Positions 1-48,590 of a stretch of 53,572 nucleotides of DNA are shown here, one piece after another (within the stretch, counting starts at the first letter, position 1; the number at the start of each line of letters is the position of its first letter). Origin of the DNA: a virus (taxonomy: Duplodnaviria; Caudoviricetes). Location: positions 1 to 53,572 of IMG/VR virus record IMGVR_UViG_3300045957_000057. One strand, written 5' to 3'. A program made the translations under genes and the position numbers. The notes below the pieces were generated by a model. It was not told the DNA's origin, searched no databases, and saw only the letters and a program-made list of their open reading frames with translations.

Positions 1-36
1 TCGCTGAGCCTCGCAGGACACGGGCAGACGCTTGGG
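1..36. repeat. Terminal direct repeat, left copy (circular assembly overlap)
   Basis: tcgctgagcc...cgcttggg at 1-36 is identical to 53537-53572; the ORF starting at 53404 continues in frame into 3..419. Confidence 0.95.
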
Positions 37-419
37 CTCAGCTCATGGCAGCTATCAAGGGTGACGTTCCGGTGCTACTCAAGGACAGCAACCCTCCCGC
101 AGGCGCACTCCTGGAGATCGTTGAGTCACGCTGGGAGGTCCCTCGATGGCTGAACCGATCACCCCCGAACAGCTCCACCAGTTCCACTTCCAAGCATCCA
201 GAGCCGCCGCCCGGATTCGTCACCGAGACGCTGACCGAGATCGCCCCGCTCGACATGGACCGCGGAACCGCTCTGCAGTGCGCAGTGCAGCTGCACTGCG
301 AAGGTCTCGGAGACATCGAACTCGGCGCAGTGCTCGACACCGCCGCGGCGCTGCATGCGTGGCTCGTCGCCGACAAGGTCGACGTCGGCGACTTCGACCG
401 CCCCGCCGGCGGGGCATGA
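3..419 (+). CDS. Hypothetical protein, 3' part of origin-spanning ORF (starts 53404); may hide a separate gene starting at 146 with a 1-nt frameshift near 217
   Basis: In frame across the junction; GGGAGG RBS before ATG146 (MAEPITPEQLHQ). Confidence 0.5.
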   Translation, partial: AEPRRTRADAWAQLMAAIKGDVPVLLKDSNPPAGALLEIVESRWEVPRWLNRSPPNSSTSSTSKHPEPPPGFVTETLTEIAPLDMDRGTALQCAVQLHCEGLGDIELGAVLDTAAALHAWLVADKVDVGDFDRPAGGA

Positions 420-427
420 TCTGACGC

Positions 428-1810
428 ATGGACGCAGCCGCAGTGCTCGACATCGTGCCCGGTGCTCGACTCGCCGACGGGCTCGTCGTGCCGGAAGATC
501 TCGACGCACCGTTTCCGACACCGCACGGCTTCACACCGCCCGTCGAGTGGCTGCTCGAACCGCATCACGATGTCATTCCCGGCGCGACTGGGCTGATCAC
601 GGCGGACGGCCGCTTCTGCGCCTACTCGCACGAGTGGGACCGCTGTCACGTGTCGTTCACCGGCGCCGGCGAGTGCTGGACACCGCCGAGATCAGCGACC
701 GGCAACCGGATGTTCCATCAGAGCCGCACGACAGCGATGGCGGCCGACGGCACGATCGTCGAGATCCCGACCGGCGTCGTGCCGTTCGGCGGCGGTCACG
801 CCCCGCTCGACGCGACGGTCGCCGAAGCGTCGCAGTGGTACGACCGGCCGGACGTCACGAAGGTCATTGCACGAGCGGTCGAAGTCGACGACGGCTGCGT
901 GATGTGCGGCTTCATCGTTCCCGGCACGACGCACCGAGAGGTGGCGCTCATGCGAGCGTCGGCGCTCTCCGGCGACTGGCGATGGGTGCCGCAGATTCAT
1001 GATCTCGACTTCCTCGGTCCGTGCTTCGTCGCTCGGCCGGGGCTGCCGCTGTCGCTTGAGCACGCAGCGATCGAGCAGGCGCTCTGGCAGATCGAGCGCA
1101 CGACCGAGGTCAGCCGCACCGCCTCCGGCCAGATCTCCGCTGTTGTCGGAGGCATCGTCAGCTGGGCGCCGCGGCCGGCCGTGACCGATCATGTGCCGGC
1201 AGCCGTGATCGCCGCAGCAGTCGAACAGACCGGAGACGAACCGATGCCCGCTTGCAAGTGCCAGCAGACCGATACCGAGACGACGCCGGCGACGGTCGCC
1301 GCTCCGGTTCTGCCATCACACCGGAACCGGACGGCCGCGGCCGGCACATCGCTCTCGTTCCGCGAACTTGAGGAGTCCGTGCAAGAGGCGCTGATCGCAG
1401 CGTTCGGCACCGGCCCCGACCCGTGGGTGTGGGTCAAGGACTTCGACGACACGTGGGCCGTGATCGAGCTTGAGCGCTCCGACCCGATCCTTGGCACCGG
1501 CACCGGCACGTACCAAGTGGCGATCACGATCAACGCCGACGGCACCGTGCTCGTCGACCGCATGTCGGCGACCGAAGTCGAGACGGTCTTTCAGCCGGTC
1601 GGCGGCGGCACTCCGGAGAGCATCGAGGCGCTGCCGATGGTCACCGCTCACGCTTCGGACGCAGCGGCGATCGCCGAGATCCGGGCCGAGCTTGAGAGAG
1701 CGCTTCAGACCGTCGAGGCGCAGTCGGCCGACATCGCCCGGCTGACCGCTCAGTCGCTCGAACCGGCCGAGATCGTCGAGCAACTGCCTGAGGCGCCGGA
1801 ACCGGTCTAG
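428..1810 (+). CDS. Capsid maturation (prohead) protease, actinophage type
   Basis: Motifs CH..F..C.TPPRS, GGGHA, YD, LSGDWR recalled from actinophage capsid proteases; lies between MuF-like gene and major capsid. Confidence 0.75.
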   Translation: MDAAAVLDIVPGARLADGLVVPEDLDAPFPTPHGFTPPVEWLLEPHHDVIPGATGLITADGRFCAYSHEWDRCHVSFTGAGECWTPPRSATGNRMFHQSRTTAMAADGTIVEIPTGVVPFGGGHAPLDATVAEASQWYDRPDVTKVIARAVEVDDGCVMCGFIVPGTTHREVALMRASALSGDWRWVPQIHDLDFLGPCFVARPGLPLSLEHAAIEQALWQIERTTEVSRTASGQISAVVGGIVSWAPRPAVTDHVPAAVIAAAVEQTGDEPMPACKCQQTDTETTPATVAAPVLPSHRNRTAAAGTSLSFRELEESVQEALIAAFGTGPDPWVWVKDFDDTWAVIELERSDPILGTGTGTYQVAITINADGTVLVDRMSATEVETVFQPVGGGTPESIEALPMVTAHASDAAAIAEIRAELERALQTVEAQSADIARLTAQSLEPAEIVEQLPEAPEPV

Positions 1811-1819
1811 ACTGAGCAT

Positions 1820-1918
1820 CGGCCTACGGGGCCGCGACACGGACGGTCGCAGCAGCGGCGGTCGGCGCATCAGCCGGCCCGCTCGGAGTGGTTTCCTCGC
1901 TGCTGTCGACCGTCCGTG
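1820..1918 (+). ncRNA. Putative structured small RNA / cis-element with GGAGUGGUUUCCU loop
   Basis: Stem 1838-1857 pairs with 1898-1918 (12+8 bp, one bulge); inner hairpin 1858-1882; unpaired 1883-1897; possible -10 TAGACT at 1808-1813. Confidence 0.55.
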
Positions 1919-2055
1919 GTGCATACTCCGCACCGGAACCTCTACAGCTCACCGGGTGAGCTGCACGGAGAGCACCGGGTGCGCTTCGAGTGGGGAACCG
2001 ACTGCCGACCGGGTCGGCGACCGCAACCGAACCGAAGTGCAGGAGGCACACCATC

Positions 2056-3978
2056 ATGCGGATGTTCAAGATCGGCGATCAGTGGTACAAGCTGGACGGC
2101 GCCCAGCTGGTCAAGATCGATGCTCCGGAGACCGAGCCGGCCGAGGGCGAGTTCTTCGACGCCTCGACTCTCGTGACCGAGTTCGACGGCATCGGCGAGC
2201 TGACCGCCGTCGCCGACCGAGCGAACGAGCTGATCGGCGAGTACAACCGTCTGCGGACCGAGGCCGCGACCGACCCCTCGAAGCTGACCGAGGCGAAGAC
2301 GGCGTACGATGCGTCGCTCGTCGCTCGGGTGCTGCACGGCGAGCGCAAGACCGCTCTCGACGGGCTGCCCGAGGCCGGTGCCCTGCCGAACGAGCCAGCT
2401 CCGACCGAGACCGACGACAAGCCGACCGAGACCGACGACAAGCCGGACGAGACGCCGGACGAGACGCCGGACGGCACTGACGTGACCGTGCCCGACGATG
2501 CGTCGTCGCTCACGCAGTCGATGCAGCTCGTCACCGCTGCCGCCGCTGCTGCCGGTGTCGATCCGGCCGATGTCTTCGCTCGGCTCGTGCCCGGCGGCGG
2601 CGACAAGCCGGCTGGAGCTCCTGCTCGGACCGAGCCTCGACAGCAGGCGACGATCATCGCCGCTGCCGACATCGGCTTCGGTGGCGGGCACGACATGTCG
2701 CTCGACGATCTGGCGACCGCTCATCAGCGGTTCGCGAAGAGCCGCCGGCACAACACCGCCGCCGTCGCCCAGACGATCGCGACGATCGAGATGTACGGCG
2801 ACGCTCCGAGCATGGTCGCATCCGCTCAGGCCGTCGAAGCTGCTGCCGACCGGAAGATCGACGCCGCTTCGGCCGCCGAGTTCCACGCTCGTCGCGCCGG
2901 CAGCCGGGGCATGACCGCCGCCGCTCCGGACCGGTGCGGCCCCCCCGATGTCCGCCGCGAGATCAAGTACGCCGGAGACGACACGTCGCCGCTGCTCAAC
3001 CTGGTGGAGACCTACCCCAGTCCGCACTGCGAGCTGGAGTACTACAAGGACATCTCGCTCTCGGACGCGAGCCCCGGCGTCGGTCGCTGGACCGAGGCCG
3101 CCCGCTCGGCGTATCAGACGGCGCTCGACAACTGGCGCTCGACCCAGGACGCTGCGACGCTCGCTGCGCTCAAGGCGGCCGAGAAGCTATGCGTCATCGC
3201 CGACTGCCCCCCGACGGGCAACGTCACGATGCTGCCCATCTATGCGTGCATCGAGTACCCGACCGATCTCGAGGTCTGCTCGCCGCAGGCGATCCGGGCC
3301 TACATGCGGGCGCTCAACCGTGCGTGGATCCGGGAGCGGTCGTCGAACTTCCTCGCCGTGCTGGCGACGATGTCGGCTCGTGTCACCGTCGACGCTTCCG
3401 ACGGCTTCTTCGAGAACGCCGACACGACCCCGATCAGGCTCGGCGCCGGCGGTGTGCTCGACTACGTGATGTCGACGCTGATGGGCATGGGGGTCATGGA
3501 CGAGCGGGTCACCGAGGGCGACTACGTCGCCGTCGTGCCGTACGGTCTGCAGCGGTTGCTTGAGATGGAGGGCCGGCTCGCCGAGGGTGTGTCGGCGATC
3601 TCCGACACGCTCGGCGGTATCCGCACGATCACGTCGCTCGACGTGGCGACCGGTTCGTCGCTGCCGTGGACGAGCATGCCCGCCCAGGACGGCACCACGA
3701 CCGACTTCGTCGGCGCTCTGCTGCCGCCGTCGGCGTGGGACATCGCCGTCTTCGATCCGAGCGACTTCTTCGCCATCACCCGACCCGACATCGAGCTTGG
3801 TGCTCAGGTCACCCCGGAGACGATCCGAGGGAACATGGTGTTCGGCGGCTTCATGGAGTCGCACGAGGGCTACGGCAAAGACGGCGCTCACCCGAGCTGG
3901 ACGATCGCCGCATCTAATCTCGTCTACAACGGCGTGCGTCCGGACAAGGCTTCGGCCGCCGGGCTGCTCACCGTCTGA
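2056..3978 (+). CDS. Major capsid protein (hexamer type) with N-terminal scaffold-like acidic/coiled region
   Basis: AGGAGG RBS at 2041-2046 before ATG2056; ~640 aa; follows protease; PTETDDK/PDET repeat linker. Confidence 0.8.
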   Translation: MRMFKIGDQWYKLDGAQLVKIDAPETEPAEGEFFDASTLVTEFDGIGELTAVADRANELIGEYNRLRTEAATDPSKLTEAKTAYDASLVARVLHGERKTALDGLPEAGALPNEPAPTETDDKPTETDDKPDETPDETPDGTDVTVPDDASSLTQSMQLVTAAAAAAGVDPADVFARLVPGGGDKPAGAPARTEPRQQATIIAAADIGFGGGHDMSLDDLATAHQRFAKSRRHNTAAVAQTIATIEMYGDAPSMVASAQAVEAAADRKIDAASAAEFHARRAGSRGMTAAAPDRCGPPDVRREIKYAGDDTSPLLNLVETYPSPHCELEYYKDISLSDASPGVGRWTEAARSAYQTALDNWRSTQDAATLAALKAAEKLCVIADCPPTGNVTMLPIYACIEYPTDLEVCSPQAIRAYMRALNRAWIRERSSNFLAVLATMSARVTVDASDGFFENADTTPIRLGAGGVLDYVMSTLMGMGVMDERVTEGDYVAVVPYGLQRLLEMEGRLAEGVSAISDTLGGIRTITSLDVATGSSLPWTSMPAQDGTTTDFVGALLPPSAWDIAVFDPSDFFAITRPDIELGAQVTPETIRGNMVFGGFMESHEGYGKDGAHPSWTIAASNLVYNGVRPDKASAAGLLTV

Positions 3979-3995
3979 TCGGCGTAACGTTGATC

Positions 3996-4033
3996 GAGGT
4001 CGGCCGGCTCGCTTCCGCCGGTCGGCCGGCCTC
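3996..4033 (+). terminator. GC-rich hairpin after major capsid gene
   Basis: gaggtcggccggc ... gtcggccggcctc imperfect inverted repeat; no U-tract. Confidence 0.45.
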
Positions 4034-4064
4034 GGTCGCTCCGCTCGCAGCGTAAGCTCTGCGC

Positions 4065-5078
4065 ATGTTCACTCCGGTTCGTTCCCCTCTGCTCGAAGAG
4101 CCGCCGTCGTGGTCGATTCTCGACGTGGCCCGACCGATCGGAGATCTCGACGGTCTCACGGACGCCGTCACGAGCTGGGGCTCCGGCGTCGGTCTGCACT
4201 ATCTGCCCGGCGGCGACGTCGGCCGGTGGCGGCACGACACGATGCTGACGAACGCAGCGTTCGACGATCCGGACATCGCCGGCATCGCCGATCCGGCCGA
4301 GTGGCCGACAGCGATCGACGTGCAAGAGGGCGGTCAGACCGTCTACTCGGCCCCGAACGGCGAGAAGCCGGTCTCGGCCGATCTCGCTCGGGTCAACTTC
4401 CGCACGTTCTCGGTGTTCACTCCGCTGCTGGAGCTCGAACTCGCTCAAGAGACCGGCGAGGCGGCCGATCTCGCTCGTGACCGGCTGCGTGCGAACATCG
4501 CCGGTCAGATCGCTGCCGAGTTCGCTGATTCGCTCTACACGAAGAATCCGGGGCTGTACCGGGCGGCGACCGATCAGTCGTCGGCGTCTCCGGTCGATCC
4601 GACGTACGGTCTGACGGTGCTCGCTGAGGCGTTCGGAGCGTCCGGCACCGCCGACGGCTCGGCGTACGGCGATGCGGTCGTCACAGCGCCGTGGCACGCT
4701 CTGCCAACGCTGGTCAAGCGCGGCTCGGCGCAGTGGTCGAACGGCCGGCTGCTCGACGTCTTCGGTCAGCCGCTCAATGTGACGCCGGGGCACGTGCTCA
4801 ACGGTCCGCTGACCGACCCGCTCGATCTCGACTCGTCGCAGCCACCGGCCGACGCCGCGGCGTGGATGTACATCTCGCCTCGCCCGTACGTCGGTGTCGG
4901 CTCGTTCCGGCCGCTGCCGACCGGCGACGAGCGGGCGCCGGGCCGGCCGGCTCCGTCCGGCACGCACGCCAAGGCGAACATCCAAGTCGGTCTCGCCGAG
5001 GCGCCGGCGATCGTCGTCTTCCGGCCGGTGCGTGTGCACGCCGTCGAGGTCACGCTGAACGAGCCTGTCGGCAGCTGA
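4065..5078 (+). CDS. Second capsid protein (putative pentamer/vertex protein)
   Basis: 337 aa directly after major capsid; pattern resembles the second capsid protein of cluster-B-like actinophages (from memory); homologous to 41896..43173. Confidence 0.6.
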   Translation: MFTPVRSPLLEEPPSWSILDVARPIGDLDGLTDAVTSWGSGVGLHYLPGGDVGRWRHDTMLTNAAFDDPDIAGIADPAEWPTAIDVQEGGQTVYSAPNGEKPVSADLARVNFRTFSVFTPLLELELAQETGEAADLARDRLRANIAGQIAAEFADSLYTKNPGLYRAATDQSSASPVDPTYGLTVLAEAFGASGTADGSAYGDAVVTAPWHALPTLVKRGSAQWSNGRLLDVFGQPLNVTPGHVLNGPLTDPLDLDSSQPPADAAAWMYISPRPYVGVGSFRPLPTGDERAPGRPAPSGTHAKANIQVGLAEAPAIVVFRPVRVHAVEVTLNEPVGS

Positions 5079-5103
5079 GCCGTCCGCAGCGCATGATGCG
5101 GAC

Positions 5104-5571
5104 ATGACTCTCCCAGCTGCAGATCCAGTCGGCTTCGGTTCCGGCGGTGGAGGCGGTTCCGGCAACTCGACGGCGACGGTGCTGCTCATGCGGGATAGCG
5201 GCAACGACACGCTGTTTCTCCGGCGGTTGCCTCGCAATGAGAGCGGCACACCGGGCACAGCTGTCGACACGCAGCTGGACGGCACGAGCGTCTACACGGT
5301 GACCGGCACGCCAATACCGGTGACCGAGCTGCCACGCGGCCCCGAAGGTTCGGTGACGGTCACCGCGCTTGGCAACTCAGACAATCACACGACGACCGCA
5401 GGCCGTTCGTCGGTGACGTACTTCGTCGAGTCCGCCGGCGTCACGCTCGGTGGAGTCGCCGTGCCGGCGAACACGGCGCACACCGTCGAGATACCGGGTG
5501 GCACGATCCCGGCGCTGTCGTTCGCCACCGATGGCTCCGGCTCGGTGACGATCATCGAAGAGGGGATCTGA
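5104..5571 (+). CDS. Putative virion/head accessory protein (Thr/Gly-rich)
   Basis: Late-type promoter; N-terminus conserved with inverted fragment at 42940-43155. Confidence 0.6.
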   Translation: MTLPAADPVGFGSGGGGGSGNSTATVLLMRDSGNDTLFLRRLPRNESGTPGTAVDTQLDGTSVYTVTGTPIPVTELPRGPEGSVTVTALGNSDNHTTTAGRSSVTYFVESAGVTLGGVAVPANTAHTVEIPGGTIPALSFATDGSGSVTIIEEGI

Positions 5572-6662
5572 TGGCCTTCGCTTTGATCGACGCATTTCAC
5601 TGGGAAGCCGGCGAAGATCACGCCGAGTGGACGAATCTCGATGCCACCTTGCCGACGACAGATGAGGTGACCAACGTCGGAGCCGACGACGGGACCTTCT
5701 GCAAGCATCTCGTTTTCGGCTCGTCACATGACTTTGAGGCCAGCTGGTTCGAGAAGTACGATCGGGCCACCGTCGGGACCGCTGTCCTATTCCAGGTCAC
5801 TCTCCGGATCGATGATCTGACCGATCTCGACAGCAATGTCTACATGGTGCACTGTCAGCGCGACACCGGCGGCGATGGCGGACTCGCAGGCATCAAGATC
5901 AACGCGAACGGGTCAATCGACGCAATGGTCTTCAGCAGTCAGAGCATTCAACAGGTCGCCGGATCGGGCACCGTGCTCGCATCTTCGGCTGCCGGCGTCG
6001 TCGGCAATGACGCCAAGACCGTTGTCACTTGCCGAGTCGTGTTCGACAACTCGGCCGGCGAGATACAGGTGAAGGTCGGGCAGGGCGAAGTGCTCACCGT
6101 GACCGGCGAGGACACGTATCGAGGACCCGGGAACCCCGGCACGGTCTGGGGCTTCGGTCTGTTTCTCTCGTCGGTCACGTTCGGCTCGGTCGATGCGCGG
6201 TTCTCACAGTGCACGATCGCCGAAGATGGCGATCTCGCCGACTTCGCCCCGAAGCACTATCAGGGGTATGCGAGCGACGGCGTCACGACCGACAACGATG
6301 GGACGATCTTCGGCGGTGAAGCCACGGCCGATGCTGCGCTCGGAGCGATCCCAGCCGTCGACACTGACGGGATCACGCTCGACAATGTGAACGACGCCCA
6401 GGGGTTGACGTTCCCGACCCCGACCGAGACCGGGATCGACACCGTGCAGCTGTGGGGTGCCGTCGGCGACGACGCTGCCGGCTCCGAAGTGCTGCGAGTC
6501 GATCTCGCCGACGGCACCGCTACCGAGACAGGCTCGGCGATACCGCTGTCGGCGGACTTCGGCGCAGTGGCACTGACCGAGCTACTCACGTCACCGCCCG
6601 GCGCTGCGTCGTGGGACGCCGCGAAGGCAGATCTCGAAGGCACGCTGGTCAGAACAGCATGA
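5571..6662 (+). CDS. Putative virion accessory protein, beta-rich (lectin/ConA-like fold possible)
   Basis: 363 aa, Asp/Thr/Gly-rich, translationally coupled in the structural operon. Confidence 0.5.
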   Translation: MAFALIDAFHWEAGEDHAEWTNLDATLPTTDEVTNVGADDGTFCKHLVFGSSHDFEASWFEKYDRATVGTAVLFQVTLRIDDLTDLDSNVYMVHCQRDTGGDGGLAGIKINANGSIDAMVFSSQSIQQVAGSGTVLASSAAGVVGNDAKTVVTCRVVFDNSAGEIQVKVGQGEVLTVTGEDTYRGPGNPGTVWGFGLFLSSVTFGSVDARFSQCTIAEDGDLADFAPKHYQGYASDGVTTDNDGTIFGGEATADAALGAIPAVDTDGITLDNVNDAQGLTFPTPTETGIDTVQLWGAVGDDAAGSEVLRVDLADGTATETGSAIPLSADFGAVALTELLTSPPGAASWDAAKADLEGTLVRTA

Positions 6663-6898
6663 CGACCGAGGCGCGCAACGTCGTTCTCGTCGTCGGTAGC
6701 TCGCCGGCGTTCGCGCCCGAGGCGCGCAACGTCGTTCTCGTCGTCGGTAGCTCGCCGGCGTTCGCGCCCGAGGCGCGCAACGTCGTTCTCGTCGTCGGGT
6801 CCGACGACCCGGACTTCGTCACCCCTGCCGGCTCCGGCTGGGTGAGCAGCAGCCGCCGGCGCCGCGCTCAGATTCTCGCTCAGATTCTCGGCGCATGA
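6659..6898 (+). CDS. Small protein with ~2.6 tandem copies of EARNVVLVVGSSPAFAP
   Basis: ATGA overlap with upstream stop; 51-bp exact tandem repeats. Confidence 0.6.
   Translation: MTTEARNVVLVVGSSPAFAPEARNVVLVVGSSPAFAPEARNVVLVVGSDDPDFVTPAGSGWVSSSRRRRAQILAQILGA
6666..6798 (+). repeat. 51-bp in-frame tandem repeat (2.6 copies)
   Basis: Copies start at 6666, 6717 and 6768 and are identical. Confidence 0.95.
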
Positions 6899-6927
6899 TC
6901 CCGAGCTAGCTCTAGGCTCGGCGGGCG

Positions 6928-7212
6928 ATGCAGCCCGCGCCGAACAGCTGCTCGACCTGCACGAATCTCGTCGACGGCCGATGTCACGGGATGCCGCCGC
7001 GGCCCGGCAATCTCGCAGGGCACGCCGTCTTCCCGATCATCGTCAGAGCCGAAACGACTGTGTGCCGAGCGTGGACCGACCGACCCTTCGGACAGCCCGA
7101 CAGCGAGCTACCGGACCCGCACGAGCGATCTGTGCTGCCGTACGTAGCGCTCTCGCTCATGGCTCTCGCCGTGCTCTTCGCTCTGCTGCTGCTCGCCGGG
7201 AACCTTGCTTAG
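6928..7212 (+). CDS. Small Cys-containing protein with C-terminal TM helix
   Basis: CxxC...C...C plus hydrophobic tail. Confidence 0.55.
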   Translation: MQPAPNSCSTCTNLVDGRCHGMPPRPGNLAGHAVFPIIVRAETTVCRAWTDRPFGQPDSELPDPHERSVLPYVALSLMALAVLFALLLLAGNLA

Positions 7213-7229
7213 ATCGCCGGTGGTAACCA

Positions 7230-7580
7230 GAGAACCCCCCCCAGAAGTACCTAAACGGCCGAAACCGGGCTTCAAGTACTTCTGAGGGCTTGCTCGATCG
7301 TTCCTTGCTTGAGTCGCGCGGCGTGAAACCGTCGAACCGCGGGCCGACAGACTCGGCCCGTCACCGCGGGAGGGGGCACCGCCGCTGACGACACTGCGAA
7401 GATGCGGAGCGCTTGTGCGGTACCTCTGAAGGGGCGCTCGCCGGCAGTCGGCTCGATCGCTGCATACCCGGGCGTCGGGGACGATTCTCACGTCTCGCGC
7501 CGTGTCTCGTCCGGCGAGCCGACAAGCTAGTCGTCGATCAGACGTTCGACTAGGCTGTGAGCTGTTCAGTTCTTCGCTGT
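7230..7580 (-). ncRNA. Putative structured non-coding RNA / origin region
   Basis: No credible ORF; several perfect stems; C8 run; minus-strand TCGACG-17-TAGGGT promoter at 7614-7586. Confidence 0.45.
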
Positions 7581-7661
7581 TCCGAACCCTACCGGCCCGA
7601 CTGCTGCTCGTCGAGCACCAGCGGGCCGGTCTGGTTTCCGGCCGCGGCCCATCATCGTCCG

Positions 7662-8102
7662 ATGCTGAAATCTGAGTCCGAACGCATCGCTCTCGTCCGC
7701 ACGATCGCTCCGCTCTTCTGGGCATTCGTCGTCACACGAGTCTCCGACTGGGGCGTCGATCTGCCGCAGCGCATCGCCGACATCATCGGTCTCGACGTCG
7801 GCGTGACGAACTCCGGCATGACGATCGTCGTCGGCATCGCGCTCTGGCTCACCGCCCGCATGTGGCCGAGCGTCTTCGAGCGGCTGCTGATGTGGATCCC
7901 CGTTGACGGCTACGCATACCGCCGCAACGACGATCTCGTCATCGACACCGGCCGACTGCCCGGCGCTGCTCCGGTCGTTGCATCGCTCGAACCGCTCGCC
8001 GGCACCGACCGGTTCGCCCAGGCATTTATCGCCCGCCGCCCGTCGCCGACGCAGCTCCGAGCCGCCGCTGCGCAGCTGCTCGACGCCGCCGAGCGCCGCT
8101 GA
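7662..8102 (+). CDS. Holin-like membrane protein
   Basis: Two hydrophobic segments; RT..P...R..P..LL..P..Y pattern like actinophage holins; late-type promoter. Confidence 0.5.
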   Translation: MLKSESERIALVRTIAPLFWAFVVTRVSDWGVDLPQRIADIIGLDVGVTNSGMTIVVGIALWLTARMWPSVFERLLMWIPVDGYAYRRNDDLVIDTGRLPGAAPVVASLEPLAGTDRFAQAFIARRPSPTQLRAAAAQLLDAAERR

Positions 8103-8155: not shown

Positions 8156-9160
8156 ATGCCCACGACCCTGCAGTACTCGGCGCACGACCTCTGTGCGTCG
8201 ATTGCTCTGCCCCTCAACTGCGACGGAACGATCGCCGACGAGGTCGACACGTTCACGCTGAACGGTGCTCTCGCCGGCACCGAGACGGAGATCCCGATCA
8301 ACGAAGCCGTCGATCTGCAGAACACCCCGACGTACGGCGAGCTGACGCTCGACGCCGGCGGACCGAACGAGCAGGTGCTCGGCTACGGATCGATCACCGA
8401 CCCGACGACCGCCGGCTCGGCGATCTTCAATCTGATCACCGGCGACGCGGTGGTCGGAGCCGTCGACGACGGTGACGCCGTCACGATCGCCCGGTCGACG
8501 CCGATCGTGCACTGCGGTCTCACGCAGGTGCGGCTCATCCCACAGACGACCGACGAAGTCATCGACGAAGATCCGTCCGGTCAGGCGAACCAGAACGTCG
8601 CCCGCCGCCGGATCCCGCCGCAGCGCAACGGCTACATCGTCGAGGCCGACATCACCTCGAGGGAGAACCCGATCCTCTGGGCGGCGCTCAACCAGTACGC
8701 CCCGATCATCGACCCCGACGAAGAGAACGCCGTCATCGGCTTCGAGGAGATCGTCTCGACGGCGCAGACGTGCCCGACATGCGGCAGCGGCGCCGGCACG
8801 TGCCACGAGATGGCACTGATCCTCATCTACAACGCCTGGTGCGGCGAAGAGCGCAACACCGAGTTCCCGTACGTCGCCAACGTGCTGCGGTCGCTGCAGT
8901 TCGAGCCCGAGACCGAGAACATCGTTCGAGGCCGCGGATTCAACGCCGGCCGAGTGCTGCGTGCGACGCTCCGCACGAACTCGGCGTTCATCGACCCGTG
9001 GGGCATCGACCCGCGCGGCGCCGGCCAGACCGCCCGCTGGCAGGAAGTCGGCATCAAGCAGTCCCGGATCGACGCCAACGCCGATCTGTCTTCGCTGCTG
9101 ACCAACGGCTGCGGTTGCGGTGCGTGCCCGAACCCGGTGCTCGCATGGCCGACCCCTTGA
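8156..9160 (+). CDS. Major tail (tube) protein
   Basis: AGGAG RBS; 334 aa; position before adaptor/chaperone/tape measure. Confidence 0.65.
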   Translation: MPTTLQYSAHDLCASIALPLNCDGTIADEVDTFTLNGALAGTETEIPINEAVDLQNTPTYGELTLDAGGPNEQVLGYGSITDPTTAGSAIFNLITGDAVVGAVDDGDAVTIARSTPIVHCGLTQVRLIPQTTDEVIDEDPSGQANQNVARRRIPPQRNGYIVEADITSRENPILWAALNQYAPIIDPDEENAVIGFEEIVSTAQTCPTCGSGAGTCHEMALILIYNAWCGEERNTEFPYVANVLRSLQFEPETENIVRGRGFNAGRVLRATLRTNSAFIDPWGIDPRGAGQTARWQEVGIKQSRIDANADLSSLLTNGCGCGACPNPVLAWPTP

Positions 9161-9250
9161 CCCTGACGGTCCGCTGCTCGGCTGACGGGGCATACCGGCC
9201 CGAGGCTTCGGTCTCGGGCCGGTGCGCGTCCGCAGCGCAGAATGTCGAGC

Positions 9251-22033: not shown

Positions 22034-22831
22034 ATGGTCTCGACCCTGACCGACAACCGCTGCCGAGCGTGCGGCGGCTCGACCGCAGCCGACATCTCGA
22101 CACACGAAGCGACACCGGACCCGCATCCCGGCTACCTCCTCGAGGTCGACGCCGCGGCGACGTATGCGACGGCCGCCGCAATCGCGACAGCGGTGTCGGA
22201 TCACGAAGCGCTCGCGAACCCGCACCCGGTGTACCTCACGCAAGCAGAAGGCGATGCGGCGTACGAACCGCTCGGCGGTGGCGGCGCCTCGGTCGCAGCG
22301 CACGTCGCTGACGCCGGCGATCCGCACGCCGCGGCCGGCTACACGAAGACGACCTTCGTCGAAGACCGAACCGGTTGGGGCTACTACCAGAACGACACCG
22401 AGACGTCAGGCGCTCCGCTCGTGCTCGTCGCAGCGACACCGGCCGATCTGCCGAACCCGGCCGACACGACGAACGAGAACGAGCTTCCGTCGGACCGGAC
22501 CGACTTCTACGAGACGACGGGGGACACGGTCACGTTCGGCTCGGTCGACGAGCTGGTCGAGATCGAGGTGCAGCTCACCGTCGAAGCCGTCGCCGCTACC
22601 GACTGGCTCGACATCTGGCTCGAAGAGTCCGGCGGCACCGAGCACGGCCGCACGACGTTCGCATTGCCGAAAGGCACGACACCGCAGACGCTCGTGCATC
22701 GGTTCGCTGTCGCTGCGTCGGCGTTGCTCGTCGCCAACGGCGGCACGGTCCGAGTCGAGTCGAACGACGCCGTCTCGGTGTACGACATCCGCTACCTGAT
22801 CAGCAGATCGCACTTCACTCGCACGACGTAG
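22034..22831 (+). CDS. Tail fibre / receptor-binding-like protein
   Basis: Repeated H....DPH..Y fibre motifs. Confidence 0.6.
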   Translation: MVSTLTDNRCRACGGSTAADISTHEATPDPHPGYLLEVDAAATYATAAAIATAVSDHEALANPHPVYLTQAEGDAAYEPLGGGGASVAAHVADAGDPHAAAGYTKTTFVEDRTGWGYYQNDTETSGAPLVLVAATPADLPNPADTTNENELPSDRTDFYETTGDTVTFGSVDELVEIEVQLTVEAVAATDWLDIWLEESGGTEHGRTTFALPKGTTPQTLVHRFAVAASALLVANGGTVRVESNDAVSVYDIRYLISRSHFTRTT

Positions 22832-22869
22832 AACTCCAGTGCTAGAGTGGCGGTCATGGAAACCACTCA
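22829..22869 (+). promoter_or_regulatory. Early promoter: TAGAAC-N4-GTGCTA operator, -10 TAGAGT, leaderless ATG, GGAAACCACTCA
   Basis: One of five copies with identical spacing. Confidence 0.75.
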
Positions 22870-23122
22870 GCAGCAGAACACACGAGTCGACCGGTTCACC
22901 GAGGTGAAGACGGCAAAGCTCCGTCTGGCGGTCGGCGAGCACAGCGGCGGCGGCACGTTCACCGTCGCCGATCTCAGCAGCGACGCCGGCGGCGTCTGGG
23001 TCACGATCGTCGACGGCGAGTCCGACGGCATCCGCCGCTTCTATCCGATGCACCGGATCCACTCGATCGACGTCGAGTCGTCTCACTTCGACGACGTCGA
23101 TCACGACGAGATCCCGTTCTAG
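22856..23122 (+). CDS. Small hypothetical protein (METTQ..., acidic DEIPF tail)
   Basis: ATG 7 nt after -10; C-terminal DDVDHDEIPF resembles an SSB tip. Confidence 0.6.
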   Translation: METTQQQNTRVDRFTEVKTAKLRLAVGEHSGGGTFTVADLSSDAGGVWVTIVDGESDGIRRFYPMHRIHSIDVESSHFDDVDHDEIPF

Positions 23123-23275
23123 TTCGCCCCCCCGACCGGACGGACCGGCCGTCGAGTCCGCTTGATCTCCCGTCTCCGCTCACCGGATAGAGCAGCCATC
23201 CGAAGCAGAGATTCCCGATCGAGCGGCCGACGGCCGGTCTCGTTCTGACTCTACGCAGATCGGAGACCACGCACC

Positions 23276-26855: not shown

Positions 26856-26896
26856 TAGAACGGAAGTACTAGCATGGCTGACATGGAAACCACTCA
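26856..26896 (+). promoter_or_regulatory. Early promoter: TAGAAC-N4-GTACTA, -10 TAGCAT, leaderless ATG
   Basis: Repeat of the motif at 22829. Confidence 0.75.
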
Positions 26897-29481: not shown

Positions 29482-30999
29482 GCCGAGTTGGAGCTCCAGC
29501 TCATCGAACCGAGAAAGATGAAGACGCTCAAGGCGGCCACGCACACCGAGCGAGAGCGGATCGCCGGACACATGTCGGCGTTCACCGTGCCGTTTGGGCA
29601 GCTCCGGCTCTCGACGAACGTCCGCCTGGAGGCCGACGCCGACGTGCTCGACCTCGCCGAGGACATCCGGACGAACGGGCTACTGCAGCCGATCGCTGTG
29701 CGACCGTACGGCGAAGACGCCGAGGGAGGCTCGGTCTTCGTCGTCGAAACTGGCGAGCGCCGGTACCACGCTCTGCGAGCGCTGCGATTCGAGTCGCACG
29801 ACCGAGTGCCAGTGCACGTGCTCGACCCGGTCGCCGGTGTCGACCGAGTCGTGCGACAGCACGCCGAGAACGCTCAGCGCAAGGATCTGACGCCGCTCGA
29901 CGAGGCCGAGACGCTGCGGCAGTTGACCGAGCTGCACGGACTCAAGATCCGAGATGCGGCGAAGCATCTCGGCATCGACCGCAACACAGCGTCTCGCCGG
30001 CTGCTGCTGCTCCGACTGCCGGACGAGGGGCGGCGCATGCTCGCCGCCGGCGAGTGGGAAGAGGTCGAGGGCGCGCAGCTCGTCGGTCGGCTCGTCCGCG
30101 ACAAGGCACCGGCCGAGCTTGTCGAGCAGCTGCTCGGAGCGACCCGGCATCGAGCACAGCGAGCGCTCGACAAGCACACCGTCGGCCGTGACCGAGACCG
30201 TGCGGTCGCTCAGCTGGAGACACGTGGCTTCGGCATCGTGACGAACCCGAAGAACGGGCCCGCTCCGGCCGGCCGCCGCACTCGCATCGGCCCGGAGATC
30301 GACCCGGAAAAGATCAAGCAGCTCGACCCCGACGACATCGACACCGTGCGAGATCCGGACGGCAAGCCGATCGTCTCCGTGCAGCTCTTCGACGGCGTGC
30401 ATCCGACGCTGATCATCAACCGGCTGGAGCTGACCGACACAGCGCCGAAGCTCGACGCTCCGTCGGCCGACAACGACGCACCGCTCGGCTACGCCATCAA
30501 GCAAGCCGGCCGAGAGGCCCAGATCGGTCGCCGTAGCGGTGAAGTCGTCGAGTGGATGCGCGGCCCCGGACCGGCCAGCACCGATGACGACGATCTGTGG
30601 GCCGCCGTCATGCAGACGCTTGTCAGCCGCTCGCACTTCATCGATCTGAAGTCGGTCGCCGACATCGCCGGCGTCGAGCCGGTGCTCGACGAGCACGGCA
30701 AGGTGCACTCGGAAGGCACCGCCCGCCGGTGGTACGACGAGTGCGACGGCACAGAGTGCCGGCGGATCTGTCTCGCGACCGTGCTGCTCATCGGCGCCAC
30801 GCACGTCGCGAGCCTCGAGGCCGGCGACATGCCCGGCCCGTCGCCGCTGCACGAGACGCTGTTCGCTCTCGTGCCGGATCTGTCGCCGGTCGCCGACGAG
30901 GCCGGCTTCCGTGCGCTGGCGATCGCCGCCGCGATCGCTCACGACGAGCAGCTGAGCAATGAGTCCAGCTCCGACGACAACGATGACGGCGACGAGTAG
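29470..30999 (+). CDS. parB: ParB/Spo0J-family protein
   Basis: GLLQPI.V, GERRYHA, EN.QRKDL.P.DEA, HTH. Confidence 0.85.
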   Translation: MTDQAELELQLIEPRKMKTLKAATHTERERIAGHMSAFTVPFGQLRLSTNVRLEADADVLDLAEDIRTNGLLQPIAVRPYGEDAEGGSVFVVETGERRYHALRALRFESHDRVPVHVLDPVAGVDRVVRQHAENAQRKDLTPLDEAETLRQLTELHGLKIRDAAKHLGIDRNTASRRLLLLRLPDEGRRMLAAGEWEEVEGAQLVGRLVRDKAPAELVEQLLGATRHRAQRALDKHTVGRDRDRAVAQLETRGFGIVTNPKNGPAPAGRRTRIGPEIDPEKIKQLDPDDIDTVRDPDGKPIVSVQLFDGVHPTLIINRLELTDTAPKLDAPSADNDAPLGYAIKQAGREAQIGRRSGEVVEWMRGPGPASTDDDDLWAAVMQTLVSRSHFIDLKSVADIAGVEPVLDEHGKVHSEGTARRWYDECDGTECRRICLATVLLIGATHVASLEAGDMPGPSPLHETLFALVPDLSPVADEAGFRALAIAAAIAHDEQLSNESSSDDNDDGDE

Positions 31000-31054
31000 T
31001 CTCGTCCGTACAGATGCTCTCGTCTCCGAGCGGCGGTGCGAGAGCCCTGTGCCA

Positions 31055-31095
31055 GTGCGCCGGCGCACGTCCCCGATGGATGTGCGCCGGCGCAC
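31055..31095. promoter_or_regulatory. Two perfect 14-bp palindromes GTGCGCCGGCGCAC (parS/operator candidate)
   Basis: At 31055-31068 and 31082-31095, just after parB and abutting -10 TACTGT. Confidence 0.55.
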
Positions 31096-31107
31096 TACTG
31101 TCTCCGA

Positions 31108-31308
31108 GTGCTCACGAGCGTATGCGCCCGAATCGGTTGCGACGAGCCCACAGATCGGGCATCACGGATCGTGGTGCGCTCCGACACCGGCAGTGACGGC
31201 ATCGAGCTGCTGCTGCCGGTCACGCTGTGCGACGGCTGCTCGATCTCGCTGGGGCTCGTCGAGCTACGTGCGTTCGTCCGCCGGCCCGGCGATCACCACG
31301 CCGAGTGA
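31108..31308 (+). CDS. Small Cys-containing protein
   Basis: GTG 6 nt after TACTGT. Confidence 0.45.
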   Translation: MLTSVCARIGCDEPTDRASRIVVRSDTGSDGIELLLPVTLCDGCSISLGLVELRAFVRRPGDHHAE

Positions 31309-31329
31309 CATCCGAGAATCGGTCGCCGG

Positions 31330-32085
31330 ATGAGCGGCCCCGTCGAACCGACGACGCTCGCCGAAGCGCATGCCGAGATCGACCGGCTACGCCGAGCGCT
31401 CCGGATGAACGGCGACGACCCGGATGTAGTCGTCATCACGTACGGCCGAGACAACGCCGCCGTCGAGCTGGTCACGGATCTGCTCGGCATCGTGCCGCCG
31501 GCCGAGTGGCGAACGCTTGCGCTCCGAGCGCTCGACCGAGATCTGCTCGGCGACGAAGAGTGGTGGGCCGCGCTGCAGCGCCGTCGCCGACGCATCGCCG
31601 GCCGACCGATCCGGCCCGGTGATCTGCCGTCGCTGTCGACGAGAGTCACCGTCGCTCATCAGCTGCTCATCGCCGACATCGCCTATCGGCACCGGCCGGA
31701 CAGCGAAGAGCCGGCAGACGCCGTCCGAACGGTCTCGGGCCGGATACGGCGTTACGAGTACACAGATGCCCGCCGGATCGCATACCGGCGATCTGAGGGC
31801 CGCTGCGAGGCCGACGGGCTGCATCACCGAGACTGCCCCGGCACGGTCGACAGTGCACGCTCGCCGGACACGTTCAGGACTCATCACATCTACCCGAGAG
31901 AGCGGGCGAAGCGTGACGGCATGCTCGACGATCCGCTGCTCGATCATCCGGGCAACCTGCTCGTCGTTTGGAACGGTCACACCGGGCTCGGCGCCGGAGG
32001 CTGTCATCGCCGCATCCACACCGAGCGGGCGCTCGCTCACGAGCTGGGGTATCTGCATCGAGATCTCGCTCACGTAGTACCGTGA
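31330..32085 (+). CDS. HNH endonuclease-domain protein
   Basis: C..C, HHIYP, NL, CH..IH in the C-terminal half. Confidence 0.75.
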   Translation: MSGPVEPTTLAEAHAEIDRLRRALRMNGDDPDVVVITYGRDNAAVELVTDLLGIVPPAEWRTLALRALDRDLLGDEEWWAALQRRRRRIAGRPIRPGDLPSLSTRVTVAHQLLIADIAYRHRPDSEEPADAVRTVSGRIRRYEYTDARRIAYRRSEGRCEADGLHHRDCPGTVDSARSPDTFRTHHIYPRERAKRDGMLDDPLLDHPGNLLVVWNGHTGLGAGGCHRRIHTERALAHELGYLHRDLAHVVP

Positions 32086-34274: not shown

Positions 34275-34343
34275 TTGTCAATCTAGAACCGGAGCACTAG
34301 TCTTGACGTTCTAAACCACTCCGAGCGAAGGGAAACCACTCCG
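34275..34343 (+). promoter_or_regulatory. Early promoter TTGTCA-17-TAGTCT with tandem operators and two AAACCACTCC boxes
   Basis: TAGAAC-N4-GCACTA at 34284-34299 and TAGTCT-N4-GTTCTA at 34298-34313. Confidence 0.75.
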
Positions 34344-34344
34344 C

Positions 34345-34461
34345 ATGATCTCCGACACCTCGACGAAGAACGACGCTCACACCGCCGCCGGCGTCGAGCT
34401 GCATCAGACTTTCGACGCGATGCTCGAACAGCTCGAAGCGACATACGATGCCGACGCTTGA
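34345..34461 (+). CDS. 38-aa acidic peptide (not in ORF track)
   Basis: MISDTSTK...ATYDADA*, first ORF after the promoter. Confidence 0.5.
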   Translation: MISDTSTKNDAHTAAGVELHQTFDAMLEQLEATYDADA

Positions 34462-37462: not shown

Positions 37463-37986
37463 AGCAGCCGATCACGCCGGAAGAGCTGCACCGCTCACAC
37501 CGCTGGTTCAAGCTCGACGAACTCCGGCAGCTGCCCGGCAACCCGAACACCGGCGACGAGCAGTCGCTCACCGACTCGATCGACCAGTTCGGATGGTTCG
37601 ACGGCATCGTCGTCGCTGACGGCATCGTGCTCGCCGGCAACCACCGGCTGCAGCGAGCGCTCGACCGAGGCGAGGCCGGTCTGCCGGGATACGACTTGAC
37701 CGGCTTCGACGTGTCCGACGCCGAGCGCATGTCGATGGCGATCACGCACAACCGCACGACTCGGGCCGGTGTCGACGATCCGGAGCTGCTGCGAGCCGCC
37801 CTCGAGACCGTCGCCGTCGACGACCGGCAGCTCGCCGTCGTCGCTGTCGGCCCGGAGCTGGCAGACGACATGCTCGGCCCGGCCGTGGTCCCCGACTTCG
37901 CTCCGCTGCCGCCGGAGTCGCAGCCGAGACTCGACCGCCGCGAGCCGGTCGTCTGCCCGTCGTGCTCGCACTCGTTCCTGCCGTGA
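37459..37986 (+). CDS. ParB/Srx N-terminal-domain protein with C-terminal Zn ribbon
   Basis: NPN, SI.QFGW...IV, LAGNHR, CPSC.H.F. Confidence 0.75.
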   Translation: MKQPITPEELHRSHRWFKLDELRQLPGNPNTGDEQSLTDSIDQFGWFDGIVVADGIVLAGNHRLQRALDRGEAGLPGYDLTGFDVSDAERMSMAITHNRTTRAGVDDPELLRAALETVAVDDRQLAVVAVGPELADDMLGPAVVPDFAPLPPESQPRLDRREPVVCPSCSHSFLP

Positions 37987-38750
37987 CAGTCGTCGTCGCT
38001 CCGGTCGAGCACGACGCAGCGACGTTCGCCTGCCGGCACTGGCACTACAGCCGATGTGTGCCGGCCGGCAAGCTCATCAAGTACGGCGCCTGGGAGTCCG
38101 ACCGGTTCGTCGGTGTCGTGCTCTACGGCCGCGGCTCGAACAAGAACCTCGCGAAGTCGTTCGGCGTCGAGACGACCGAGATCTGCGAACTCGTCCGGAT
38201 CGCTCTCGACGAGCACGAGACACCGGTGACGCAGATCGTCGCCGAGACGCTGCGGCAGCTCCGGCAGTCGAACGGCGGGCTGCGTGTCTGCGTCAGCTAC
38301 GCCGACCCGGAGCAGCAGCACGTCGGTCGGATCTATCAAGCCGGCAACTGGACGTACCTCGGTCGGACCGAACCGGCTCAGGAGTACGTCGTCAACGGCG
38401 AGCGGATGCACGGCCGGTCACTGCGAGCGCTCCGCAACGCCTCACCGACCGACACTGCCGAGCACCGGAACGTCGTCAAGTGGGCGCAAGCAAACCTCGA
38501 TCCTGATGCTCGGATGGAGTTCGGCTCGTCGAAGCACCGGTACGCGATGCCGCTCGACAAGCCGATGCGGCGGGCGCTGCGCCGGCGAGCGCTGCCGTAT
38601 CCGGCGACGGTCGACGGCGGCGAACTCGTGCGGTCGGTTGCGCTAGAGTCCTCGGTCACAAGCGGTCGAGGGATCGACGGTGATCCGCCCGGCGTCCAGC
38701 GGGGAGGGGTGAGTTCAACTCTCGCCGACCGCTCGGAGAGCAGCCGATGA
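37983..38750 (+). CDS. mom: Mom-like (GNAT-fold) DNA adenine modification enzyme
   Basis: HYS, GV..YG, ELVR.A, VSYAD..Q.H.G.IYQA.NW.Y.G, KHRY motifs. Confidence 0.8.
   Translation: MTVVVAPVEHDAATFACRHWHYSRCVPAGKLIKYGAWESDRFVGVVLYGRGSNKNLAKSFGVETTEICELVRIALDEHETPVTQIVAETLRQLRQSNGGLRVCVSYADPEQQHVGRIYQAGNWTYLGRTEPAQEYVVNGERMHGRSLRALRNASPTDTAEHRNVVKWAQANLDPDARMEFGSSKHRYAMPLDKPMRRALRRRALPYPATVDGGELVRSVALESSVTSGRGIDGDPPGVQRGGVSSTLADRSESSR
38662..38733 (+). tRNA. Degenerate tRNA-Gly(TCC)-like RNA within the 3' end of the mom-like gene
   Basis: Acceptor GCGGTCG/CGACCGC + T73; D-arm GGATC/GATCC; anticodon loop CGTCCAG; T-arm GTGAG-TTCAACT-CTCGC; upstream -10 TAGAGT at 38644-38649. Confidence 0.75.
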
Positions 38751-43283: not shown

Positions 43284-43338
43284 TAGAACCGGCGTGCTAC
43301 TCTTGTGCTCACGTAACCACAAGAGAGGAAACCACTCA
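43284..43338 (+). promoter_or_regulatory. Early promoter TAGAAC-N4-GTGCTA, -10 TACTCT, GAGGAAACCACTCA at RBS
   Basis: Repeat motif. Confidence 0.75.
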
Positions 43339-43339
43339 C

Positions 43340-44380
43340 ATGGCACACGAGCTTGAACTCACTGGCGACGGCGTCGCGTCGTTCGCTTACTCGAAGAATT
43401 ACGGCGATCCGTGGCACCGGCTCGGCACTCCGCTCGACGGTCTGTCGGACGTCGACACGATCCTGCAGCTGAGCCGAGCTGACTACGAGGTGCACAAGGC
43501 GACGCTGCTCACGCCGGACCCGGCACCGAGTCGGCGAGACGGCATCGGCCGGCCGATGCTCGACACCGGCAGCTCGTACACGTGGCGCACTCGACCGATC
43601 TGGATCGGCGACGACGGTCAGCCTCGAGGCGGCGACCGGCACGTGCTCGGCATCGTCGGCAACGACTACCCGGTTGTGCAGAACCGGCAGCTGACCGAGC
43701 TGGCCCTGCGACTCGTCGGAGCGCTGCCGGGCGACCGCACGATCGACTGCGCCGGCGTGCTCGACGACGGCCGCCGGTTCTTCTTGACGATCCCGCTCGA
43801 CGACATCGTGCTCGACCCGTCCGGCGTCGCCGACGTGCACGGCCGCAACCTCGTCGTCTCGACCGGTCACGACGGGCACTGGGCGATCAACTTCGTGCAC
43901 GGCATCGTGCGAGCGGTCTGCGCGAACACCGTGCAGGCGGCGAACGACTCGGCGCACTGGCTCGTCACGATCCCGCACCGGGGCAAGTTCGATCCGGATC
44001 GGATCTCGCTGCAGCGTGCGCTCGGTCTCGCCGAGCGCGGCGGCTCGGTGTTCGAGGAGACCGCGGTCAAGCTGCTCGGCATGCCGGCGTCGTTCGACGT
44101 TGTCGTGTCGACGCATGACCGGATCTGGGGCGCTGCTCGTGCGAAGTCGATCCGTGTGAACCGGCTCAACACGCTGGAGACGCTGTGGACGTCAGACACC
44201 AACGTCGGCGCTGTCGGAGCGAACCGGTGGGCGGCGCTGATGACGTTCTCGGAGTACTTCGAGCATCGGCAGCAGTTCGCCGGCTCGAAGCGGCCGGGAG
44301 CTCGACCGCTGCGGGCGACCGGTGTCGGCGGCATGCACACTCGGATCACGCAGGCCCGCAAGATCCTGGAGACGATCTGA
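43340..44380 (+). CDS. DUF932/DUF945-family phage/plasmid protein
   Basis: MAHEL...PWH.LG, Y.VVQN, GHDG, VR.VC.NT motifs. Confidence 0.8.
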   Translation: MAHELELTGDGVASFAYSKNYGDPWHRLGTPLDGLSDVDTILQLSRADYEVHKATLLTPDPAPSRRDGIGRPMLDTGSSYTWRTRPIWIGDDGQPRGGDRHVLGIVGNDYPVVQNRQLTELALRLVGALPGDRTIDCAGVLDDGRRFFLTIPLDDIVLDPSGVADVHGRNLVVSTGHDGHWAINFVHGIVRAVCANTVQAANDSAHWLVTIPHRGKFDPDRISLQRALGLAERGGSVFEETAVKLLGMPASFDVVVSTHDRIWGAARAKSIRVNRLNTLETLWTSDTNVGAVGANRWAALMTFSEYFEHRQQFAGSKRPGARPLRATGVGGMHTRITQARKILETI

Positions 44381-45149: not shown

Positions 45150-45190
45150 TAGAACCGACGTACTAGAGTGGTGCTCATGGAAACCACTCA
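45150..45190 (+). promoter_or_regulatory. Early promoter TAGAAC-N4-GTACTA, -10 TAGAGT, leaderless ATG
   Basis: Repeat motif. Confidence 0.75.
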
Positions 45191-48526: not shown

Positions 48527-48590
48527 CAGTCGGTCTACCCATCGGCCGACCAGATGATGCGCTGCGGACGGCTCGGCTACGCTGTTGACC

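Follow-up and report, generated by a model that had tools for sequence, protein, structure and literature searches.

A hairpin between two structural genes of an uncultured actinophage-like siphovirus carries the complement of a motif found at five gene starts

Why should a phage carry, in the tip of a hairpin of great stability located between two structural genes, the reverse complement of a short motif that lies at the starts of five genes elsewhere in its genome? The question arises in the IMG/VR virus record IMGVR_UViG_3300045957_000057, a complete genome of 53,572 bp (67.7% G+C, 36-bp direct terminal repeats), the whole of which was analysed and is called the window below. The phage is uncultured and its Pfam and PHROG family matches are those of an actinophage-like siphovirus. 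A preliminary description of the hairpin, at 1838-1918, and of the motif had proposed a trans-acting antisense RNA that silences an early regulon. The observation itself, i.e. the motif, its reversed copy and the hairpin, was confirmed to be real and non-random. As to its meaning, the reading that we favour, tentatively and with somewhat less than even confidence, is that the hairpin acts as RNA of the + strand and that its tip pairs, in five transcription units, with the motif next to the start.

The 11-nt motif GGAAACCACTC was found as an exact match on the + strand at 22858, 26885, 34331, 43327 and 45179, all at gene starts as described earlier, and once on the - strand, at 1886-1896. Allowing one mismatch left the genome total at six, all of them exact, while at this threshold shuffled sequences had 0.37 matches on average and never more than 2, so that none of 100 shuffles reached six. 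Under a first-order Markov model, 0.0025 copies of the reversed 11-mer GAGTGGTTTCC are expected on the + strand, and the expectation for the 15-mer common to the reversed copy and 34313-34327 is 3e-5. The 15-nt and 13-nt complementarities claimed for two of the starts are both real. The first runs between 1880-1894 and 34313-34327 and the second between 1886-1898 and 43325-43337, the final base of the latter already lying inside the long stem of the hairpin. Moreover, taken together, the copies at 34313-34327 (15 nt) and 34331-34343 (13 nt) are complementary without a mismatch to the whole 17-nt stretch 1880-1896. Exact complementarity of 11-15 nt is seen at six sites in the five modules described below, each no more than 3 nt from an ATG or at a predicted 5' end. 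Matches with two mismatches show no overall enrichment (12 found, 9.0 expected), and the degenerate copy before the helicase gene (Table 1) is notable by its position only. The complementarity between the reversed copy and the gene-start motifs is far above chance.

Judged by its sequence surroundings, GGAAACCACTC does not stand alone but closes, on the downstream side, a promoter-like module that is conserved. The five + strand copies form the downstream part of one module of ~45 nt, TAGAAC-N8-TA(G/C)NNT-N7-ATG. The pattern TAGAA[CG]-N6-10-TANNNT occurs at five sites on the + strand, with the motif in all five, and at none on the - strand. In modules 1, 2 and 5 a -10-like hexamer (TAGAGT or TAGCAT) is followed after 7 nt by ATGGAAACCACTC, and there is no Shine-Dalgarno (SD) sequence (no GGAGG upstream). 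These three modules fit the geometry of a SigA-type leaderless promoter and, with the transcription start placed accordingly, look leaderless. Leaderless mRNAs are described as frequent in Actinobacteria (PMC3898074). Such a geometry would explain the METT N-termini, which had been ascribed to the shared motif; ATG GAA ACC ACT does open the reading frames at 22856, 26883 and 45177. The gene of module 1 (frame 22847-23122) gave no family match in profile scans, and that of module 4 encodes a DUF932 protein (E 2.5e-30). Module 3 alone has a canonical TTGTCA, and a TAGAAC...GTTCTA inverted pair flanks its -10 (34284-34313).

The leadered modules, 3 and 4, have a degenerate copy at the predicted 5' end and an exact one beside the ATG, the exact copies being at +17 and +21 from the predicted start. 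All five exact copies lie no more than 3 nt from an ATG, and the degenerate copy before the helicase gene likewise ends 3 nt from an ATG although no module precedes it. Because the exact motif appears to follow start codons more faithfully than it follows promoters, its distribution points to a role at the RNA level. Of the modules grouped as a putative 'early regulon', 1-3 head the replication/recombination region, while 4 and 5 are flanked on one side by the terminase gene and its 506-aa neighbour and on the other by the lysis and portal genes. The label 'early' is therefore only partly justified for the five genes.

The reversed copy occurs in one of the few non-coding gaps of the genome. 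The whole 245-nt gap folds at -133.7 kcal/mol (z -4.84) and none of 200 shuffles was equally stable. For the hairpin, the minimum free energy was -72.6 kcal/mol (z -4.83) on the + strand and -70.5 kcal/mol (z -5.52) on the - strand. Among ~3,566 overlapping 90-nt windows of the + strand the hairpin ranks second in stability, at -60.4 kcal/mol against a mean of -34.5 and a standard deviation of 6.5. Both the 20-bp stem and the inner hairpin of the preliminary description are present in the computed fold, the stem being formed by 1838-1857 with 1898-1918 and having one bulged U at 1906. In arm 2, GGAG (1885-1888) pairs with UUCC (1893-1896) around a UGGU loop, the unpaired probability of these eight bases being 0.01-0.22. 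G.U pairs are found only on the + strand (1862.1877 and 1888.1893), where the energy is -60.4 against -56.7 on the - strand, and this advantage of 3.7 kcal/mol in the model is a weak hint as to which strand is the active one.

Downstream of the hairpin, the 640-aa structural gene has its SD, caggagg, at 2040-2046 and its ATG at 2056. In the predicted fold of 1811-2060, the helix of the GGAG of this SD (2042-2045) with CUCC (1926-1929) and that of GCAC with GUGC (1919-1922) both abut the base of the hairpin directly. The AUG at 2056-2058 is predicted to pair with 1817-1819, and the SD/AUG pair probabilities are 0.76-0.96. Rfam gave no match at the gathering score anywhere in the window, C4-type antisense RNA included, and only four sub-threshold matches at chance level in 1700-2150 (E 1.8-7.1). 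A spurious 81-aa open reading frame (ORF) on the - strand of the gap had no match among 1.84 billion protein representatives.

Table 1. Positions in the window of the gap, its hairpin and the motif-bearing modules
Feature	Positions	Strand	Description
Non-coding gap, 245 nt	1811..2055	+	Between MuF-like head gene 428-1810 (PHROG) and 640-aa structural gene 2056-3978
Three-way-junction hairpin	1838..1918	+	Predicted basal stem, arm 1 (1858-1882) and arm 2 with the antisense motif
Antisense stretch CGCTCGGAGTGGTTTCCT	1880..1897	+	Fully complementary to the 11-nt motif, to up to 15 nt at 34313 and to 13 nt at 34331
TAGACT, possible -10	1808..1813	+	Overlaps the TAG stop of gene 428-1810
GUGC (1919-1922) and CUCC (1926-1929)	1919..1929	+	Predicted to pair with GCAC and SD GGAG (2042-2049), probabilities 0.80-0.96
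Module 1	22829..22868	+	TAGAAC, N8, TAGAGT, N7, ATG 22856, GAAACCACTC; leaderless type; 88-aa protein, METTQQQ
Degenerate copy GGAGACCACGC, two mismatches	23262..23272	+	Ends 3 nt before helicase ATG 23276; no module upstream
Module 2	26856..26895	+	TAGAAC, N8, TAGCAT, N7, ATG 26883, GAAACCACTC; leaderless type; RecT (Pfam, PHROG)
Module 3	34284..34347	+	TTGTCA 17 nt upstream of TAGTCT; exact copy 34331-34341, 3 nt before ATG 34345
Module 3, degenerate copy CTAAACCACTCCGAGCG	34313 region	+	At the predicted 5' end
Module 4	43284..43342	+	TACTCT -10; AACCAC near predicted 5' end; exact copy 43327-43337, ATG 43340 2 nt on
Module 5	45150..45189	+	TAGAAC, N8, TAGAGT, N7, ATG 45177, GAAACCACTC; leaderless type; 56-aa protein, METTHDT

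In the reading that we favour, the hairpin would act as a + strand RNA, either as part of the structural-gene transcript or as a piece cut from it. Transcription of the + strand across the gap would be expected by read-through of the structural operon, since every gene with a coding signature (high G+C at third and moderate G+C at second codon positions, GC3 and GC2) lies on the + strand in ORF and GC3 maps of the whole window. The tip of the hairpin would present GAGUGGUUUCC and its flanks to the motif beside the start codons of the first genes of the five units. The duplex would start from the G of the 5'-terminal AUG in the three leaderless cases and would extend over positions -14 to -3 in the two leadered ones. 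In either case ribosomes would load less readily, or the mRNA would be laid open to decay, or both effects would combine. The free form of the RNA, the pairing, repression as its effect and the direction of regulation are the steps that we infer. The direction may be the opposite one, with the early mRNAs acting on the late gene 2056, because the SD of that gene is predicted to be sequestered beside the hairpin.

The calculated duplex energies are -20.3 kcal/mol for the 11 bp at each of the three leaderless starts, -21.1 at 43325, -25.8 at 34331 and -29.1 at 34313. Against these stand predicted opening costs of 4.5-7.2 kcal/mol for the hairpin loop, 0.9-1.6 for the leaderless 5' ends and 4.1-5.9 for the leadered targets, so that the modelled net pairing energies are favourable. 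The target sites are predicted to be the most accessible parts of the putative mRNAs.

Relatives of the phage were examined for conservation of these features. In the Logan/ENA assemblies there were 11 relatives of the 640-aa protein (42-61% identity) and 16 of RecT, and the N-termini of seven near-full-length RecT sequences, self included, were compared. METT(H/L) was present in five of the six relatives (those of 44-63% identity), hence in six of the seven sequences, within an otherwise variable N-terminus. It stands at the called start or 2-3 residues in (MADMETT, MTDMETT, MGMETT, METT) and is followed by a poorly conserved acidic stretch, whereas the most distant relative (42% identity) begins with MTTETET. 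Since METT(H/L) is kept in six of the seven sequences, the start motif of RecT is, at the protein level, old and conserved in the lineage, and conservation of the nucleotide motif would follow from it. No related DNA was found when 1400-2400 was compared with GenBank phages by blastn, nor in protein-seeded scans of IMG/VR (MuF-like protein, 640-aa protein, terminase and a 12-sequence alignment), nor in JGI metagenomes and GTDB genomes, where the module-pattern scans gave 0 and 0 matches. A looser form of the module pattern had three matches in IMG/VR, in contigs of 34-41% G+C, and these were rejected as chance.

A parallel is found in the Cluster K mycobacteriophages. Their 13-bp start-associated sequences (SAS) are placed 3-7 bp upstream of ATG codons, within the non-structural half of the genome and in one orientation (Pope et al. 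2011, PMC3203893). An extended form (ESAS) of ~46 bp holds a promoter (PMC11373665), and the K1 phages have one reversed SAS, away from gene starts (PMC3203893). The SAS and the present motif are both short asymmetric repeats beside the starts of non-structural genes in nearly one orientation, and in both cases some copies are joined to a conserved promoter element. In K1 a single reversed copy lies in the hairpin loop of a conserved intergenic structure, and the single reversed copy here lies at a hairpin tip. The differences are that the SAS GGGATAGGAGCCC has no match in the window at up to two mismatches, that it includes a canonical SD and stands in every case before the ATG (by 3-9 bp) whereas three of the five copies here follow the ATG, inside the coding sequence of leaderless genes, and that Cluster K phages have 11-19 SAS against five copies here. 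The phages are unrelated.

In phage Anaya (JF704106) the reversed SAS, with one mismatch, lies in the 385-bp gap between gp96 and gp97 (59,682-60,066), near the right genome end, in the 10-nt loop of a GCGCGG/CCGCGC hairpin. A gap of this type is kept in 182 Cluster K records. Anaya and 12 phages, hand-picked from 60 listed to span the range of identity, were aligned over the gap. Four helices were seen in the alignment, together with a terminator upstream and a promoter-like pair, TTGnCG...TAGACT, that is conserved. Helix cells were paired in 95.2% of cases as against 33-50% when the partners were slid, and changes on both sides occurred in 6 pairs as against 1.7 +/- 1.2 in shuffles (none of 500 reaching this number); many G.U pairs exist on the + strand only. 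The reversed SAS was present at up to two mismatches in 7 of the 13 sampled phages, the C/U-rich loop of the K1 type being the reverse complement of the SAS repeat. Rfam had no family match for the gap. Hypothetical ORFs are annotated over it in Validus (gp103), Amgine (gp95) and Peanam (gp97). With these features, the Cluster K gap looks like an undescribed structured + strand RNA. A literature search, the scope of which extended neither to the ZoeJ RNA-seq paper (PMC6452893) nor to paper supplements, found no paper to link mycobacteriophage, noncoding RNA and Cluster K, and the word mycobacteriophage is absent from a 2025 review of phage small RNAs. The parallel is one of analogy, not homology, and raises the odds of an RNA reading only moderately.

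Several results weigh against pairing by a + strand RNA. The 15 nt that had been described as unpaired are at the tip of the fold, but eight of the eleven antisense bases are in the predicted weak 4-bp helix, the GGAG/UUCC mini-hairpin, with an opening cost of 4.5-4.7 kcal/mol, and only UGGU and its flanks are free. The five starts had been expected as the top targets of a genome-wide duplex scan. This was not the case: with a 23-nt GC-rich query the true sites, at -30.4 and -30.8, were among many at -29 to -32 and no better than background. The scan is uninformative because GC-rich chance duplexes score equally. The hexamer TAGACT proposed as a -10 at 1808 is present, but the evidence for a promoter is weak. 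There is no -35-like hexamer at 16-18 nt and no TAGAAC at the module spacing, a consensus promoter scan listed none at this site, and TANNNT is estimated from base composition to occur by chance about once per 220 nt. No terminator-like site was found in 1-8000, and the hairpin has no convincing promoter or terminator of its own. One sequencing run contains the window, a DNA run that is likely its source, and no RNA run is listed; over 1300-2600 at 80% likeness, that run showed the source contig and short unrelated pieces but no variants of the gap. In Cluster K, six of the 13 phages have a different C/U-rich loop while all five of those checked keep 17-18 forward consensus copies of the SAS, so the loop does not co-vary with the SAS. 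Lastly, the - strand has a TAGAGG at a distance of 48 nt upstream from the reversed copy. The leadered modules have 43-47 nt at this place, and the chance of so similar a spacing is ~0.003 as estimated post hoc.

This last result would be expected if the hairpin had a structural role, as a processing site, a stabiliser, a terminator or an SD-sequestering 5' untranslated region of gene 2056, and the motif were the leftover of an inverted promoter-leader module without a function of its own. A 20-bp stem is of the size cut by RNase III, the predicted fold pairs the SD of gene 2056 with 1926-1929 and its AUG with 1817-1819, and other very stable hairpins follow other genes (9181-9236 and 31054-31096). 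We nevertheless regard this explanation as unlikely. An intrinsic terminator should have a U-tract and none is present, the bases after the stem being GTGCATACTCC, though the hairpin may conceivably be a terminator of a kind that lacks one. Beyond TAGA, the 30 nt at the promoter position match the module at 14 of 30 positions, where the background has a mean of 13.1 and a 90th percentile of 16, and the -10 position on the - strand reads CGGAGT. In contrast, the motif region agrees at 17 of 17 positions with a composite of the 34313/34331 copies, and neutral decay should not spare the motif alone. On our own reading, the reversed copy may have descended from an inverted module whose promoter is dead, the stem having been built around the intact motif. 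Given that the motif is intact and the rest is at background, selection on the motif in its new setting would fit better than neutral decay. A functional sixth promoter on the - strand was also considered and was rejected on account of the CGGAGT at the -10 and the background level of module similarity.

The motif could instead be read as DNA, a phage or host protein binding double-stranded GGAAACCACTC downstream of the -10 to block or modulate transcription. The sixth, reversed copy would then be one more binding site. The motif is fixed 10 nt after the -10 in three of the five modules and is asymmetric, as are the Cluster A stoperators, which are transcription-level sites (PMC3203893), and for the ESAS promoter repeats of Cluster K binding by a regulator has been suggested (PMC11373665). 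However, the leadered modules have the exact copy beside the ATG and a degenerate one near the promoter, a double-stranded site needs no place at the tip of a 20-bp inverted repeat, and neither a repressor nor an integrase family was matched among 57 ORFs searched against PHROGs, a WhiB-like protein being the only regulator seen. An operator is thus improbable, to about the same degree as a structural hairpin with a relic. We give still less credence to recognition of the sense motif on the mRNAs by a protein or by the ribosome, with the hairpin either irrelevant or a decoy made from the - strand. The T4 proteins RegA and RegB, a translational repressor and a nuclease, are models for such a protein. 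The motif is start-associated, the - strand displays AACCAC with predicted unpaired probabilities of 0.96-1.0 within a 3-bp mini-stem, and a GAGTAT ending ~5-7 nt before the base of the stem could be a weak -10. Yet the - strand has no gene or coding signature and lacks a TAGAAC box and -10 at the proper module spacing, its fold is 3.7 kcal/mol weaker with no gain from G.U pairs, and family scans gave no candidate RNA-binding protein.

Pairing of an exposed loop with repeated targets on the phage's own mRNA is known for the c4 antisense RNAs of P1/P7 and the CI RNA of P4. The c4 antisense RNA is also mentioned in PMC12197685. Like these, the present candidate would be a small structured phage RNA with targets on the phage's own mRNAs away from its own gene. 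The c4 and CI RNAs, however, address one operon, in the immunity of temperate phages of Proteobacteria, whereas the RNA considered here would address five units in an actinophage in which no lysogeny genes were detected. The stoperators of Cluster A phages such as L5 are double-stranded DNA sites for the immunity repressor, in ~24-30 copies. They are similar to the present motif in being asymmetric repeats (of ~13 bp), scattered and biased in orientation, and they are tied to control of phage transcription. The present case differs from them in that the search for a repressor found none, that the copies go with start codons and that the tip of a hairpin carries the reversed one. In T7, RNase III processing hairpins lie between the genes of polycistronic mRNAs, and the present hairpin resembles them in that its stem is long and imperfect and stands between genes of a long operon on one strand. 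We know of no RNase III site that carries the complement of other phage mRNAs.

The structural proteins among the family matches comprise a tape measure, a head-tail adaptor, the MuF-like head protein, a portal-like protein and the large terminase, and further matches are to RecT, a helicase, a Mu Gam-like protein, WhiB, two ParB-like proteins, a Mom-like protein, an amidase endolysin and DUF932. The nearest cultured relatives have ~30% identity in the MuF-like protein, for which tblastn found 281 phage records, all below 60% identity and the top ones at ~31-35%. No tRNA or tmRNA was found in a search of the window. Unusual cargo is present as a Mom-like DNA modification protein (37962-38750, E 5e-45), a DnaJ-domain protein (48585-49223) and, among the head genes, a 622-aa protein with a 2'-5' RNA ligase (2H) domain (51403-53271).

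Other non-coding and structured sites were observed. A 265-nt non-coding gap (6663-6927) holds a 51-bp unit repeated 2.6 times at 100% identity (6666-6798), followed by the 12-bp unit CGCTCAGATTCT repeated 2.2 times (6865-6890). In the head-gene block, the 344-nt gap 7213-7556 has no ORF of coding signature and contains an 18-nt inverted repeat (7238-7288). The most stable 90-nt window of the genome is 31006-31096 (-64.9 kcal/mol). It includes a 19-nt, 95% complementary hairpin (31054-31096), located after a ParB-like gene and within the called ORF 30959-31333. The strong hairpin at 9181-9236 (stable window 9161-9241) resembles a terminator or stabiliser without a U-tract. It follows a 334-aa gene (8156-9160) that has the highest GC3 and is guessed to be the major capsid gene.

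Most of the known antisense RNAs by which a phage acts on its own genes are cis-encoded or regulate a single operon. If the pairing reading is correct, one RNA would address five units via a tag at the start codon, leaderless 5' ends included, and such a layout of timing control, in an actinophage of lytic appearance, would be new. It is conceivable, but on balance doubtful, that actinophages with tagged starts in general encode a coding-strand RNA that displays the motif in antisense and pairs with all the marked starts at once. That control of a gene class by one RNA arose independently here and in Cluster K1, and would thereby explain the SAS repeats, we hold to be equally doubtful. The Cluster K phages are cultured and engineerable and their RNA-seq is published, so the idea could be tested there. 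The structure around the reversed SAS would offer a concrete experiment on a motif described in 2011, the function of which is still called unknown in papers of 2024 and 2025.

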